Made by a program: the position numbers and the translations under genes. Of a stretch of 64,000 bases of DNA, positions 16,228 to 51,312 are shown piece after piece (position 1 is the first letter of the stretch; every line of letters begins with the position of its first letter). Below the pieces are notes generated by a model. The model made no database searches. It was not told where the DNA came from and saw only the letters and a program-made list of their open reading frames with translations. The stretch is taken from the NCBI GenBank assembly GCA_024137785.1, contig JAHRHZ010000093.1, positions 3,786,087-3,850,086 on the forward strand, given 5' to 3'. Origin of the DNA: Ginglymostoma cirratum (lineage: Eukaryota).

Positions 16228-16627
16228 NNNNNNNNNNNNNNNNNNNNNNNNNNNNNNNNNNNNNNNNNNNNNNNNNNNNNNNNNNNNNNNNNNNNNNNNN
16301 NNNNNNNNNNNNNNNNNNNNNNNNNNNNNNNNNNNNNNNNNNNNNNNNNNNNNNNNNNNNNNNNNNNNNNNNNNNNNNNNNNNNNNNNNNNNNNNNNNNN
16401 NNNNNNNNNNNNNNNNNNNNNNNNNNNNNNNNNNNNNNNNNNNNNNNNNNNNNNNNNNNNNNNNNNNNNNNNNNNNNNNNNNNNNNNNNNNNNNNNNNNN
16501 NNNNNNNNNNNNNNNNNNNNNNNNNNNNNNNNNNNNNNNNNNNNNNNNNNNNNNNNNNNNNNNNNNNNNNNNNNNNNNNNNNNNNNNNNNNNNNNNNNNN
16601 NNNNNNNNNNNNNNNNNNNNNNNNNNN
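16228..16627. other. Assembly gap (400 N)
   Basis: Run of N. Confidence 1.
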
Positions 16628-18134: not shown

Positions 18135-18989
18135 ATTTTGTTAAAAGATGCATTTTTCCCAGTGCTGTTTTAAAAGTGGATGGTTGGATAGTGATGTGGA
18201 GCAGGAGCTCTGATTGACAGTGACTAACTCAGCAAGGAGCACTGATTGAATCTTAAGCCTCCTAGGATGTGTAGCTCAGCACAAAAATGCATGGTGAATG
18301 TGTCCACTCAGACCTTAAGTGTTCTTCATTGCAAGGGTATTCTCCCCCTCTTTCAAAGTATCAGTGTCTCACAGCAAATAGTGAAAGTGATTGAATGTTT
18401 GAGTCCTGCACTCGAGCTGACTGCGTGGATGTGAAGCATGAGGAACACCCATGGAGAAATAAATGTCACTCAAATCAGGTCTGCCACTGGCTGATCAGAG
18501 TCAAAGTCCAGACTTCCCAGATAACCACGCCTAGGCCAGTTAACAAGATGCCAAAGAAACAAATGGGGACAGAAAAGCTGACAAAATGAAATCAATAGCA
18601 AGTTTAGATTCTGGATTTAAAGATACAACAGGGAGACCAAGAGATCTGAGCAGCGATGCACTACATGTGAGCTAAAGTATTTCACAAAAGGACTCTTCAC
18701 TTGCTGTGATTGATGATGAAAGCCACTGTTATTCAGTAACCTCCATTTACAACTGGATTTAGCTTTGCAAATTCGGCATTGACTTTTTTTTTCCCTCTCA
18801 TCCCTGTAGGCTTCAGACCAATTTTGTCATACAAATTGACTGGGAAATCCTCCAGTTCCTTTCAGCTCTTCTGATTATCGGTCACTTTCACGGAATCGTC
18901 ATCGAGAAACATTTGAGGAGTTTCCCATACAGTCTGTCTTGACTGGCATCAGAGGCCAGATAAATTGTATATTGATTAAAAGGGAGACA

Positions 18990-19290
18990 TCCAAAATGAG
19001 AGGACAAAAATAGACAGGAAAACAGAAAGCAAAATGGAGAGGATAAATGAAAGAATAGAGAGAAAGAGATGCTAAGAACAAAAGACAGAGATGAACAAAA
19101 ACAGGAAATAGACAGAGTAAGAGCAGAGAAAATGAGAGCATAAAATAGTGGACAAGAATCAGAAAGAAAAGATACAAATAAAGAGAGAAAAAGTTGATGA
19201 AAAACAGAGTAAAAGAGACAGAAGGAAGAAATAGGGAGAGTGAGGGAGAGACCACAGAACTAGGACAACCGACAAAAGACAGTGGAGATA
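18990..19290. repeat. Purine-rich (AG) low-complexity tract
   Basis: Almost all A/G on the plus strand. Confidence 0.8.
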
Positions 19291-20075
19291 AAGGGCTAGC
19301 GTTAAACGTTTAACATGGTCATATCACATTGTGCTGCCCACAGTTAGGGACCCATTTGAAATAATAGGTTAATCTCTGAATAGCAGCGAAAGGAATTGTG
19401 TGAGAGTGAACTACTAGTTCGGCAATATTGCATAAAGTTATATCTATATGGGGAGAAACAAAGAGAAAAAAGTAATGCAGAAAATGAGGGAGCAGTGAAA
19501 ACTAGACAAAAAAGGAATTTGGTTCAATTATGAAAGTACAGATACAGTTATTGCTAGGCATGTTAGAAAGTAGTCAGTTATTTCTGTTTCATATACAAAC
19601 ACTTGCCATAGATAAATATATACATATATTTCTGTCTGTTGTGTCCCCTTGGTTCAGGCAGACAATGTTCCTGCTTTCTGCTGCCAAGCACTGATCTCGA
19701 CGTAATGGGGAGCGAGCTCACTGCTCATCTCAAGCTATCGATTAGCTGCTACTCTCTTGAAAGATGCTACACTTTCTCCTACCATCTAGTTCACAACGGG
19801 TAAAAATTGTCCGAACTAATTAATGTCATGAAATGTCAGTTTGACATGGTGTGACAGGCTGCCTTTCAGACTCAGCTCCTCTCTGCTATTAAATGATATG
19901 AGCATCAGACAACTTTATTCATAGGTTCTCCTCTCCATCCCTGCATTTACTAAAGAGCATTTTCTAGTTAACAACACATTCAAAAATCAAATTCAATATA
20001 TATATTATATACATAATTTCACTTTACAGTGCATCTGGTCTCTTTATGACAGATCAACACAGACAGGTCGACAAC

Positions 20076-21124
20076 ATTGCGAGACATCAAATCCATTAGA
20101 TTCTCTTTTTCCCACTATACTTCCTGCTTTCTGCTCCTGAAAACATCAGCTCTCCAGTGCAAATACCCCGGGGCACTTTCCACTGCCCTCTGAAGGCTGG
20201 AAGCATGAGTGAGGTGAATGTCAGGTGAGGACACAATTGGTCCTACACATGGTGATGCTTGCTCTTCAATAGCCCATCATTTGAAAAGGACTCCCAGGCA
20301 CACAGCCAAATGGGGTACAAAGCATGCCATGGAACCGCTGATGCCATTTTGATGCCAAACTTTCTGGGAAAGGGTGATGAAAAATGGGTTGAATGGAGCT
20401 ATCTTTTGGCATCTCTTGCATTTAATGCTGATCTGTGGGGCAATGCCTGTGCCCACACCAGAGTAAGAGATTTATGCCATCTCACCCTATTCTGTTTTCG
20501 TCACGAGCAGTGAGGACAGCCATGTACCACTTCCTCACTTTTGAAGAAACTACGCGGTCATTTTACTACAGACCACAGGATCATACCATGGAAAGATCTT
20601 ACCACAAACCAACAGATCTCATTACCAATCGGTACCTCTAATAACAAACCAATGCGTCCTAAAACAAAGTAGTAAGTTGAATGACAAACCTGCCAATCTC
20701 TCTATAAACCAGTTCATCTTATCACAAGCCAGTTAACTTGCTTGGTGTCATACACATCCAAATGCCTTTAATACAATTCGTGAATGGGTTTCAGCTTTTT
20801 TTTTAAAAAATGTCAGCGTTACATACTTGATCACATTCACTCCTTAAATACCGGCCTTCATTCTTTGATTGAACTGTCAATAGAAAGCTAGATAAAAGGA
20901 ACTGGGAGTCCTTTTCAAATGATGGGCTATTGAAGAGCAAGCGTCACCATGTGTAGGACCAATTGTGTCCTCACCTGACATTCACCTCACTCATGCCTCC
21001 AGCCTTCAGACGGCAGTGGAAAGTGCCCCGGGGTATTTGCACTGGAGAGCTGATGTTTTCAGGAGCAGAAAGCAGGAAGTATAGTGGGAAAAAAGAGAAT
21101 CTAATGGATTTGATGTCTCACAAT
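20076..21124. repeat. Long inverted repeat: arms 20076-20297 and 20902-21124, 604-bp spacer
   Basis: Hand alignment of the left arm to the reverse complement of the right arm: 4 substitutions and 1 indel over ~222 bp. Confidence 0.97.
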
Positions 21125-22474
21125 TTTGAGGCCAGGCTCCTGATAGACCAGCATTCCATAACAGTTGGTGGGCTCATAGTAGCAAATCCAGGTATGAATG
21201 GCTGTGCATTTATTAGTTGACTGATTCAATCCACACTCAACTTCCATACAACCACTTGGCTCAGCAGACACGCTGTGTGCTGCAGTGCATTTACAACTGA
21301 ATTGGACTGGTACCATATTATGAGCAGCCTTTAATGTAACCTCGGCAGTCAGTTACAATACAGAATTTGGCGTGCTAAACTAGAAAACAACATTAACACT
21401 GACTGTACCTCAAAATTAATCCTTTAGGTTCAAAGTGGTTAAGAACATGCAGAAAACTTAAGACATATAATATAAATGTGTAAGTGTCCTTTCTTCTTCA
21501 GAAATGGCACGTGTTCTGCATCTTTAACACAAACCGTTGTGTCTGCAATACAGACTATTCACAATATCACAAACTATTATTTGCTCCAACTTTGTTGGAA
21601 TTTTACTTGCTTTTTGTGAAGACCTTGCATGTTGAGCAGTATCTGGGTGGTCAACTGGCCATACGTTCCTTGCGGTAAGGTTGCAGTGACTTAGCTAGAT
21701 ATGAGTTATGTTGAAGATTCAAGTTTGAAGTATGCGCTGAGGAGGTCTGGTACAGGTCAGTGTGAACTGCTTGCAGCTGTTTGGACTTAAAGCTGCAAGC
21801 CGATGTCATGGACATCATTTAGCCATCAGGAAAAGGCAGGAATGTTCATTCTCAATTTTTACTCTTTGGCTGGCCATAAGGTGTTAATAAGATGACTAGA
21901 GTCGGGGTGGGTTTGGAGGGAGAGTGTAGTTTGGTCTAGATCATGTAGATCTGAGCACACTGTAGAAGCACTGTCAATGTATATCACTTCTTGATCAGTT
22001 ACAATGCAATGCTGTTAAAATATCAGTGTCGGCAGACTCCTGTTCAAACTCCAGGTGTAGCAAAACTCTCCTTTGTAAATAGACAGTTAATCTTTGCTGC
22101 TTCAGGAGTTATTGGCCAGAGGGTCAATGATAGGACAGACATCAGTTGCTATCAGTGCCAACAGTCTCGGCTGTAAATACAATCAGCTGGAGATCTGAGT
22201 TACTTTCCTTCATGATCTAATAACCACCTACCTTGGAAAGGGTAGGACTTGCCTGTGATGAACCCACTACTTCCCCAGACATACAATGGTTAGCTTAACA
22301 CTCACATGCAAAAGAATTAAACAAGATACCAGAGGGCTGGCAATGTATGGGGAACTGAACCCTAGATCAAATGAGCACCTTATGAGGAGGAGGGAAGAGA
22401 AAGTGGGTTCTAGGATAAGACATAATTGAATTTTAGGGCACAAACCGTGATGTTCCAATAGGTCAACTATCGTT

Positions 22475-23232: not shown

Positions 23233-24026
23233 TTAAAGAATACAAGATTCTTACTGACTGTAAGACAAAGGAAAAGATGAGAGATAAGGAGAAAGGAAGA
23301 GGTATCAAAACAGGAATTCACATGTAGAGAAGGAACAAAGAGAGAGAGTGTCAGAAAATGTACAGCACCAAGCAATGGTGACAAACAGAAAGGCACAAAA
23401 CTGGAAAGGGAATTAGACCATACCTTGAAGGTGAATAAAGAGTGAACTAGCGGTGGGTAAAGAGGTTGTTCAAGTGGATGGAAGAAAAACAATTCACACA
23501 GTGGGATAAATCAAAATCACTCAACTTAAAAATTGACATATAATGCTGACATAACTCAAGGAACGTACAACCATCTAAAGACACAGGGATCAACATGTGC
23601 ATCAAGCATGAAACATTTTCAATAAGCTTTATTGTGAATTTTCTGCTCCCATCTTCAAATATTTATATGATATGATTCTTGATTAATGAGCTCCATTTAA
23701 TATCTCATCCAAGAGTCCACTAGTCTGGATATTGGGCAGCCTGTTCATTAACATCCTGACTGGATTCTTTCTGGGCTGGAGATACAGTATATGCACTTTA
23801 TCAGCAGCAGTCACTGGATGTTGATCAGAAATTTGGGACCATGGATGATGTTTCTATCCTCTATGTTGTAGCAGAGACAATGAAGTAATAACAATTTGTA
23901 TAGGCACCCAAGTCGACATTGGTTAACTCTGCGGAGACTCCAATCAAAAGCTTGCTGGTTAGTCTGATGACGCTTCACCAAAGTAGCTTTCAGAATGTAG
24001 CCTTCCAAATGACGTAATACCCCCAT

Positions 24027-24549
24027 ATCTCAGGAAGGATGTACTGATCCTGGAGGGGGTTCAGAGGAGGTTCACGAGAATGGTCCCAGGAATGGAAAGC
24101 TTAACATATGAGGAACGTTTGAGGACTCTGGGACTATACTCATTGCAGTTGAGAAGGATGAGGGGGGAACTAATTGAAACCTTCAGAATACTGAATGGCT
24201 TGGCCAAAATGGATGTTGGGAAGATGCTTCCATTGGCAGGAGAGTCTAGGACCCGAGGACACAGCCTTAGAGTAAAGGGAAGACCTTTTAAAAAGGAGAT
24301 AAGGAGAAACTTCTTCAACCAGAGAGTGGTAAATCTACGGAACTCACTGCCACAGAAGGCTGTGGAGGCCGGGTCATTGAGTACATTTAAGACTGAGGTA
24401 GATAGGTTCTTGATTATCAAGGGGATCAAGGGTTATGGGGAGAAAGCAGGAGAATGGGGTTGAGGAACTTACCAGCCATGATTAAATGGTGGAGCAGACT
24501 CGGTGGGCCAAATGGCCTAATTTCTGCTCCTATGTCTTACGGTCTTATG
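24027..24549 (+). mobile_element. Young 5'-truncated CR1 LINE (ORF2 C-terminus plus 3' UTR)
   Basis: ORF 24080-24463 YEERLRTLGLYSL...RTRGHSLRVKG...NFFNQRVVNL...YGEKAGEWG; tail ctcctatgtcttacggtcttatg. Confidence 0.95.
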
Positions 24550-32159: not shown

Positions 32160-32730
32160 CCTTAGTGATTGAGGGGGAGCTGGATTCACATCAATAGAGA
32201 TAGTAGCACAGGACAGTGGGGAATGAGGTTGCCGAGTAACAGTGTGAGGGAGCTGGATTTGTATCAAGTGGTACAGTCAGGACATTCCCTCCCGAACAGC
32301 ACTGTGGGTCAACCTGCAGCATGTGGACTACAACAGTTCAAGAAGGCAGCTCACCACCACCTTCTCAAGAACAACTAGTGATAGGTAATAAATGCTGGCC
32401 AGCCAGTAATGCCCACATCCATGAATGAGTAAAAAGAAAAGGTACAGTCAGTAAAATAGGATGCTGGGGGAGAAGGATTACTGAGTGATAGCGTGAAGGA
32501 GCTGGATTAACATGAATGCAGTCAGTAACACAGGATGATGGGGGGGCGAGAGGGATCACTGAGTGACAGTGTAAGAGAGCTGGATTAACGTCAATGGAGA
32601 TACACAGTCAGTAACGCAGGATGCTGGGGGGTGAAGGGTTACTGAGTGACAGTGTGAGGGAGCTAGATTAACATCAATAGAAGTACAGTCAATAACAGGA
32701 TGCTGGGGGAGAGGGGTTACTGAGTCACGT
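32160..32730. repeat. Minisatellite with ~75-80 bp unit, about 5 copies, interrupted by a LINE tail
   Basis: Repeated gagtgacagtgtgagggagctggattaacatcaat...cagtcagtaacacaggatgctggggg. Confidence 0.9.
32281..32440 (+). mobile_element. 160-bp Crack-like LINE tail insertion with 11-bp TSD
   Basis: ggtacagtcag at 32270-32280 and 32441-32451; tail aataaatgctggcc...gcccacatccatgaatgagtaaaaagaaaa. Confidence 0.9.
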
Positions 32731-41477: not shown

Positions 41478-41905
41478 TAAGGGGCATGTCATTGAGGACT
41501 GCAGTGAGGAATGTCTTTACTCAGATGGTGGTGAATCTTTGGAATTCTCTACATCAAAGGGCAGTGGAGACTTAGTTATTTAGTAAGAGATAGTAGGAAC
41601 TGCTGATGCTGGAGTCTGAAGTAACAAAGTGTGGGGCTGGATGAACACAGCCAGCCAGACAGCATCAGAGGAACAGGAAAGTTGAAGAAGGGTCCAGACC
41701 CGAAACGTCAGCTTTCCTGCTCTTCTGATGCTGCCTGGCCTGCTGTGTTCATCCAATCCCACACCTAGTTATTTAGTAAGTTTGGCAGGGATTGATAGAT
41801 TTCTAGTTACTAATGACATCAAGGGATATGAAGATAGCAGTGAAGTAAATGATCTAGAATGGAAGAGCAGGCTCATGGGGCTGAATGGCATACTTTAGGT
41901 TCCTA
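41478..41905 (+). mobile_element. CR1 3' end interrupted by a PLE-derived insert
   Basis: gaggaatgtctttactcagatggtggtgaatctttggaattctct...gattgatagatttct...ggggctgaatggc. Confidence 0.8.
41588..41765. mobile_element. Head-to-head inverted PLE terminal-repeat insertion (family 1) with perfect 15-bp TSD
   Basis: tagttatttagtaag at 41573-41587 and 41766-41780; arms are reverse complements; core ttgaagaagggtccagacccgaaacgtc at 41682-41709. Confidence 0.9.
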
Positions 41906-49637: not shown

Positions 49638-50022
49638 GTGGTATCTGTGATTCAGTGAGAGATGTATGTAATTGAGTGAGAGATATCAATTTTTCAGCGC
49701 GCTATTCTGTGATTCCATGTGGGATTTCTATGTCTCAGTGTTGAATATCTTCGCATCAGTGTAAGATATCTGTGATTTGGTGTGGGATATCTATGATTTG
49801 CTGTGGGATATCTGTGATTCAGTATGGGATATCAGTGATTCAGTGTAGGATATTAATAACTCAGCATAGGATACCTGTAAGTCAGTGTGGGAGATCTGAG
49901 TTACAGTGTGGGATATCAGTGACTCAGTGTAGGATATTAATAATTCAGCCTGGGAAATCTGTAAGTCAGTGTGGGAGATCTGAGTTACAGTGTGGTTATA
50001 TGTGATTCAGTGTTGGATATCA
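49638..50022. repeat. 21-bp minisatellite, about 18 units, consensus gtgggatatctgtgattcagt
   Basis: Units recur at 49784, 49805, 49826, 49847; an 84-bp four-unit block is duplicated. Confidence 0.95.
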
Positions 50023-50949: not shown

Positions 50950-51312
50950 TATAGAAGTTTATAAAATCATGAGAGGCATAGATAAGTTGAACAGCAAAGG
51001 TCTTTTCATAGGGTTGGGGATTTCAAAACTAGAGAGCATAATTTTACGATGAGAACAGAAAGATTTACAAGGGACCTGAGGGCTAACCTTCTCATACAGA
51101 GGGTGGTTTGTATGTGGAATGAACTGTCAGAGGAAGTGGTAGATGCCGGTACCGTTACAACACTTAAAAGACATTTGGACAGGCACACGAATAGGAAAGG
51201 TTTCGAGGGATATGGGCCAAATATAGGCAAATGGGATTAAAGTAGCTTGGGAAAATGAGTCAACATGGACAAGTTGAACCAAAGGGTCTGTTCCTGCGCT
51301 GTATGACTCTGT
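50950..51312 (+). mobile_element. CR1 3' end
   Basis: ORF 51049-51240 QRVVCMWNELSEEVVDAGTVTTLKRHLD...GYGPNIGKWD; tail ctgtatgactctgtgact. Confidence 0.9.

Follow-up and report, generated by a model that had tools for sequence, protein, structure and literature searches.

Arms in the length range of the 222-bp inverted repeat described here occur in some elements with long terminal inverted repeats (TIRs), the arms of the Y-chromosome palindromes are far larger, and conserved non-coding elements form a known class of vertebrate sequence. Among the inverted repeats described from other organisms, the intergenic repeats of nematodes have arms of 124–160 bp and spacers of 126–414 bp and are conserved across species, with arms >95% alike within species and <80% alike between them (PMC1803023). 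In the Y-chromosome palindromes, the arms are >99.9% identical, and both conversion and rare spacer inversion have been proposed (PMC3723533, PMC8600007). Template switching between inverted repeats of yeast has arm homogenisation and spacer inversion as known outcomes (PMC8604942), while the short-range template-switch insertions of apes have a median length of 12 nt and a maximum of 128 nt (PMC7954356). Vertebrates have many long inverted repeats: LIRBase comprises 4.59 million from 208 genomes, with arms of >400 nt being required (PMC8728187).

The shark repeat resembles the nematode intergenic repeats in size, in its single locus and in a structure common to three lineages, but the nematode repeats lie between paralogous genes, whereas no gene was found here, and the identity of the shark arms is ~98% both within and between species (PMC1803023). 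As in the Y palindromes, the arms surround a unique spacer; unlike in those palindromes, decay is visible between the arms of one related organism, C (PMC3723533, PMC8600007). The events reported from apes (PMC7954356) and yeast (PMC8604942) are similar in that a nearby stretch is copied in reverse and an inverted repeat is made or perfected, although the shark copy, of 222 bp, is longer than the ape insertions and no pre-event state of the locus was observed. With the hairpin-RNA and siRNA loci of LIRBase the repeat has in common near-complementary arms around a loop, foldable if transcribed, but its arms measure 222 bp as against >400 nt there (PMC8728187). In the literature searched (mostly openly accessible papers, main texts), there is no account of such a repeat in a shark; catalogues could list it.

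The window, i.e., the whole 64-kb stretch of DNA analysed, was compared with contigs from four of the 24 listed runs, namely X1 and X2 (organism A), X18 (organism C), and X5 (organism B). The features of the locus are the following.

18781–19842, minus strand: contig of X5 (organism B), starting at a T9 run (18784–18792) and ending in a cDNA primer
19733–20075: conserved non-coding stretch next to the left arm, with no more than one difference from organism A in 343 bp
19824–19856: TGACA four times in 33 bp, the densest such cluster in the window
20076–20297, plus strand: left arm, with an imperfect extension to 20072, continuous with the conserved stretch
20101–20230, plus strand: exon-like signals in the arm (pyrimidine tract, AG at 20148–20149, strong donor at 20225); speculative
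20234 (mirror position 20965), plus strand: candidate homogenised site, with cytosine on both arms of the window but guanine on one or both arms in organisms A and C
20298–20901: spacer, 604 bp of unique sequence
20902–21124, minus strand: right arm, with an imperfect extension to 21128

The first-pass annotation had described a near-perfect 222-bp inverted repeat around a 604-bp spacer, and this description holds. Between 20076–20297 and 20902–21124 there are four substitutions (at 20080, 20188, 20202 and 20256, two of them in a CpG context) and a single indel, where a right-arm homopolymer is longer by one A. With the imperfect extensions included (20072–20297 against 21128–20902), the local alignment has an identity of 97.4% over 227 columns. 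The arms have 86 of 192 31-mers in common; the number of exact inverted 31-mers expected within 2 kb by chance is ~1e-10. They are indeed closer to each other than any transposon pair of the window, as had been claimed, since no other self-match of at least 100 bp exceeds 84% identity (the runner-up is at 83.7%), and against the rest of the window they give just chance matches of 15–25 nt, in line with the remark that they match no other repeat there. The inner edge of the arms is sharp, and the outer flanks align at noise level only, which agrees with the earlier suspicion that the similarity outside the arms is due to chance. The reported lack of a TSD is also reproduced: a scan of the arm ends (20066–20081, lengths 2–11) gave matches of 2–4 nt only, and the sole 4-nt match sits four unpaired bases beyond the arms, outside the paired region.

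No ORF longer than 87 aa touches the element, and no Pfam match over the cut-off was obtained among 139 of the 1366 stop-to-stop ORFs of at least 30 aa (mostly picked by composition), consistent with the first-pass statement that the spacer holds no transposase-like ORF. A signal-peptide-like ORF at 20377–20463 was rejected, its ATG at 20377 being changed in both A and C. Rfam gives no match at the gathering score in the window, and the two matches near the locus are at chance level only. The spacer evolves at about the neutral rate, with 31 differences in a 705-nt contig of A and 47 differences in 654 nt of C. No host gene was found in the window, nothing recognisable as an exon came out of a crude scan for splice sites, and the window is likely a large intron or a gene desert.

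Several other elements are observed in the surroundings. The 64-kb window shows no recognisable coding exon among the ORFs scanned. The open frames at 23987–24460 and 50986–51237 have no Pfam match over the cut-off and presumably correspond to the end of a LINE reverse-transcriptase protein. A small hairpin at 41619–41774 (two 67-nt arms, 84% identity, 22-nt loop) is made of a dispersed repeat family, and degenerate minisatellites are located at 32444–32725 (78 bp, 3.5 copies) and 49642–50021 (21 bp, 18 copies). The segment 18980–19260 is strongly purine-rich and of low complexity, and draws short chance matches in all four runs. An assembly gap of 400 N is present at 16228–16627, 3.4 kb from the repeat.

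With the arms and the conserved stretch set aside, 73 of 2011 bp (3.6%) are different between organism A and the window. The differences amount to 92 of 1357 bp for organism C (6.8%, a count that takes in 53 bp of the inner arm) and to 7 of 1761 for organism B (0.4%); two-seed matches of 18–27 nt, regarded as chance, are omitted from the counts. Both arms, with matching flanks and spacer, are present in A and C, and all four arm junctions are bridged by at least 31 nt on each side, the outer pair in C and the inner pair in A. The flank contigs of C extend into the adjoining arms, by 157 nt on the left side and by 158 nt on the right. The spacer contig of A reaches 50 nt into each arm, whereas its flank contigs end at the mirror positions 20105 and 21095, which is the behaviour of a 31-mer graph at an inverted repeat (Logan method, PMC12424806). 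The contigs break at 30-mers that the arms have in common, and no piece spans the repeat. Among the records listed from X1, X2 and X18 (9, 6 and 10, respectively, at 80% likeness), there is no further arm-length copy with foreign flanks, although matches as short as 18–27 nt were picked up, and the depth bins over the arms leave room, by hand arithmetic, for just one 27-nt match. The contig filter drops some records, so that presence is shown better than absence, and the repeat is likely present as a single copy in the genome.

Two differences in the vicinity of the right arm are also visible in these contigs. In C (X18), there is an insertion at 20888–20899, 2 bp from the inner edge of the arm, which has a relative among the dispersed repeats of the window and is flanked on both sides by the same 12 bp, in a TSD-like manner. 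At 21282–21285, A has 119 additional bases (in both runs) and the contigs of C break as well; the window may thus have lost these bases.

The left arm is the continuation of a conserved non-coding stretch, which had been missed at first pass. Of the 22 differences in the left contig of A, 20 are placed within 19232–19732 and one necessarily falls in 20076–20085, leaving at most one in 19733–20075 and at most two in 19733–20201. For 19733–20075, 12 differences would be expected (P 5e-5), and for the 469 bp of 19733–20201 the comparison with 73/2011 elsewhere gives a Fisher P of 3e-5. Such a gap appeared anywhere in 31 of 20000 random placements, with a scan-corrected P of ~0.002. The divergence of 19733–20201 from A is far below the local neutral rate. 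One path of A carries one difference within 20076–20201. In C, the left contig differs at 49 of 1033 bp, with 70 expected (P 0.005, for a whole-contig count), and the left-arm contig has no gap over 20076–20232. Because the conservation crosses the outer edge of the left arm, this arm would be the original and the right arm its copy, and the continuity with the conserved stretch accounts for part of the identity between the arms.

The TGACA motifs at 19824–19856, which we take to resemble TALE-homeodomain sites, form a cluster for which the probability of any such occurrence in the window by chance is 0.04, the motif having been picked after it was seen. TAATTA is also present in 19733–20201. 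Two exact-motif scans of metagenome contigs gave no matches. The conserved stretch is a candidate for an enhancer-like role, and 19733–20201, as a candidate enhancer, is perhaps more interesting than the repeat. It is similar to vertebrate conserved non-coding elements in comprising several hundred non-coding bases with strongly lowered divergence and a cluster of homeodomain-type motifs, but differs from them in that the conservation is shown among three close lineages only and in that a reverse duplicate of one portion lies close by.

Over 20076–20277, the left and right arms of the window differ by four substitutions and one indel (~2%), and the left arm of the window differs from the closest path of A at ~4 of 202 positions (~2%, with two of the four places deduced from contig ends). 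Arm identity within species is no higher than between species, a comparison that is partly resolved, the short contigs of A not being assignable to one arm. The first-pass annotation had proposed that, under concerted evolution, the arms would be more similar within than between species; the divergence is about 2% both ways and the arms of C have diverged. Within 20076–20202 (127 bp), the C arms have no 30-mer in common, the probability of which is 0.004 at 2% and 0.3 at 7% arm divergence, and the right contig of C shows 20 differences in 20997–21282 (7.0%, equal to the neutral rate) together with two 1-nt gaps. Decay between the arms of C is evident, and wholesale concerted evolution is unsupported. 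In A, the arms have exact blocks in common at 20076–20115, 20173–20202 and 20248–20277. A second path through the arm in X1, with a 14-nt deletion at 20159–20172 and four substitutions, may represent the other arm or an allele. Slow arm decay fits the directly measured shark mutation rate, which is among the lowest in vertebrates (PMC10587355). An absolute dating from the per-generation rate (33–51 million generations) was rejected as a usable age.

As far as contig ends and counts allow it to be traced, the arm mismatches of the window would all have arisen on its own branch. A single arm evolving neutrally after the divergence from A would have gathered 5.1 differences, compared with the 4 observed. 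If the tree is rooted at the midpoint (C as outgroup), 8.1 substitutions are expected for a neutral right arm; four are seen on both arms together (P 0.10), and two of them are assigned to the right arm (P 0.013). With both arms neutral, the expectation under this root is 16 (P 0.0004). In the inner right arm of C (20902–20996), 83 nt are visible, of which one deviates from the window where 5.6 would be expected (P 0.02–0.04, post hoc). Taken with site 20234, this deficit and the inner right arm of C indicate that the right arm is not simply neutral. Site 20234 may be explained by conversion, by coincidence (1.5–9%) or by a different root. The contigs carrying the guanine have depths of 18.7 and 11.1, where collapse would give 37 and 21, depth being an approximate indicator; at this near single-copy depth they may be simplified bubbles, with the guanine perhaps confined to one arm. 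A single origin of the guanine, requiring no conversion, suffices if A and C are sister lineages. The chance that at least one conversion event took place at 20234 is about even, and the hints of occasional conversion, at this site and in the conserved inner right arm, depend on the root of the tree. Of the first-pass claim that the arms are kept alike by conversion, these two hints are what stands, whereas arm identity within a species does not exceed that between species.

A fold of 1121 nt, at −613 kcal/mol, predicts that the arms pair from end to end, but any perfect inverted repeat folds, so that the folding energy is no evidence of use; the fold of a single arm is not unusual (z −0.48). 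The exon-like signals are headed by the donor at 20225, which ranks 7th among 7000 GT sites. The two arms make up two of the top seven, and a donor of such rank is expected by chance at ~0.02 per arm. The AG-free zone of 48 nt (75% pyrimidine) ranks 23rd of 8720, while the acceptor is weak (rank 1745 of 8724). The exon-like segment is 75 nt long and open in one frame; its 24-aa peptide has no PDB match, and its 42-aa ORF has no protein match, which is weak evidence. The low-difference stretch in comparison with A stops at the 20225 donor, and the +5 base of this donor is changed in A on one path.

The loose end of the X5 contig at 19842 matches a cDNA primer, the sequence of which is printed in 10.1101/2021.09.27.461747; X5 is thus a cDNA library. 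The contigs of X5 cover both flanks, the spacer, and the inner 18–21 nt of each arm, with none spanning the repeat, and are a hint of unspliced RNA over flanks and spacer. There is no cover over 19843–20276 and 20920–21459, a lack that proves nothing, although a reverse-transcriptase block or heavy editing would give the same picture. The contig at 18781–19842 has the shape of an internally primed, unspliced minus-strand RNA beside the repeat, a hint that comes from one contig of one run; neither strand nor start can be proven by contigs, and cDNA libraries of this type often contain false starts and internal priming (10.1101/2021.04.04.438388). The end of this contig falls in the TGACA cluster of the conserved stretch, as a possible RNA start or break. 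Another X5 contig, which joins 20919 to 20339 (5-nt microhomology, just 30 nt on one side, too few to count as bridged), is likely a library artefact and was not counted.

In the light of these observations, it is unlikely that recurrent arm-to-arm conversion, possibly with flipping of the spacer, is what mainly keeps an old repeat alike, as in the nematode intergenic repeats. Conversion is consistent with a repeat common to three lineages, with the candidate homogenised site at 20234, with too few arm differences under midpoint rooting, with the conserved inner right arm of C, and with the exact blocks common to the arms of A. However, arm identity within species is not above that between species, the outer arms of C have diverged and carry arm-specific gaps, and the second path of X1 may be the other arm; at 20234, the near single-copy depth would place the guanine perhaps on one arm only, and conversion is superfluous there if A and C are sister lineages. 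The high identity between the arms, together with the 400-N gap 3.4 kb away, could instead point to a recent duplication in the lineage of the window or to an assembly artefact, which we regard as extremely improbable: both arms and all four junctions are found in independent data of A and C, by which misassembly and a recent duplication are excluded unless A and C are mislabelled. The old inverted duplication proposed in the first-pass annotation is thereby upheld by the presence of both arms in the two organisms, while the recent date of a template-switch duplication, also suggested there, fails, as does the possibility of a misassembly.

The repeat might, on the other hand, be kept by selection, its 222-bp duplex in nascent RNA being edited by ADAR, cut by Dicer, or masking the exon-like segment. 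The full predicted pairing of the arms, the cDNA coverage by X5 of the two flanks, the spacer and the inner arm ends, and a whole exon-like unit in the arm, with its high-ranking donor at the point where the low-difference stretch stops, speak for such a duplex, which is nevertheless distinctly unlikely to be what maintains the repeat, as the folding energy is uninformative, the arms of C are decayed and have a repeat-derived insertion 2 bp from their inner edge, the acceptor is weak, and neither a protein relative of the 42-aa ORF nor an Rfam family was found. In addition, the hinted RNA is of the minus strand, the exon-like copy on that strand, in the right arm, is interrupted by a 1-nt gap in C, and DNA may be present in a cDNA library such as X5. 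A more specific model, quite improbable in our judgement, is that the reverse copy would have been kept because the duplex hides a conserved exon of 75 nt that has both splice sites, or supplies ADAR or Dicer with substrate; a splicing switch would then have been born in one step by inverted duplication, and sometimes repaired by conversion from the constrained arm. The length of the arms is within the range of some long-TIR elements, and the repeat could be read as a solitary remnant of a foldback element or a non-autonomous DNA transposon whose TIRs would measure 222 bp. This is very unlikely, since no further arm-length contigs occur in the three DNA runs of A and C (contigs showing presence better than absence), the arm ends have no TSD, no transposase was found among the ORFs or as a Pfam match over the cut-off, and the conservation runs over the left outer end into the flank. 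The lack of further arm-length contigs and of a TSD argues likewise against the multi-copy foldback element or MITE that had been considered at first pass.

The repeat probably arose long ago as a local inverted duplication of one part of a conserved element and is likely present once in the genome; a slow clock and the constraint acting on the left arm would be the main reasons why its arms are alike, and short conversions would have contributed occasionally at most. Template switching is its most likely origin, for an event that predates what is seen here, A and C both already carrying the repeat and the pre-event allele being unseen. As in template switching, the copy is the reverse complement of a template within hundreds of bases, and its 222 bp exceed the 128 nt of the longest templated insertion in the ape gold-standard set (PMC7954356). 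A single copying error of this kind would have placed a reverse copy of 222 bp at a distance of 604 bp, the source being the end of the conserved non-coding element, i.e., the left arm, with the right arm as the inserted inverted copy. The left arm would since have been held by the constraint on the conserved element, while the right arm would have slowly drifted, perhaps corrected at times from the left, and would require no function of its own.

The locus would carry greater weight if RNA data were to show that the duplex masks a conserved exon or is edited. It provides a clean natural test of the survival time of a 222-bp inverted repeat, and also of whether a constrained arm serves as the conversion donor for its copy. 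In slow-evolving sharks, an arm identity of 98% does not amount to recent origin or active conversion, so that repeats of this kind call for checks across species.
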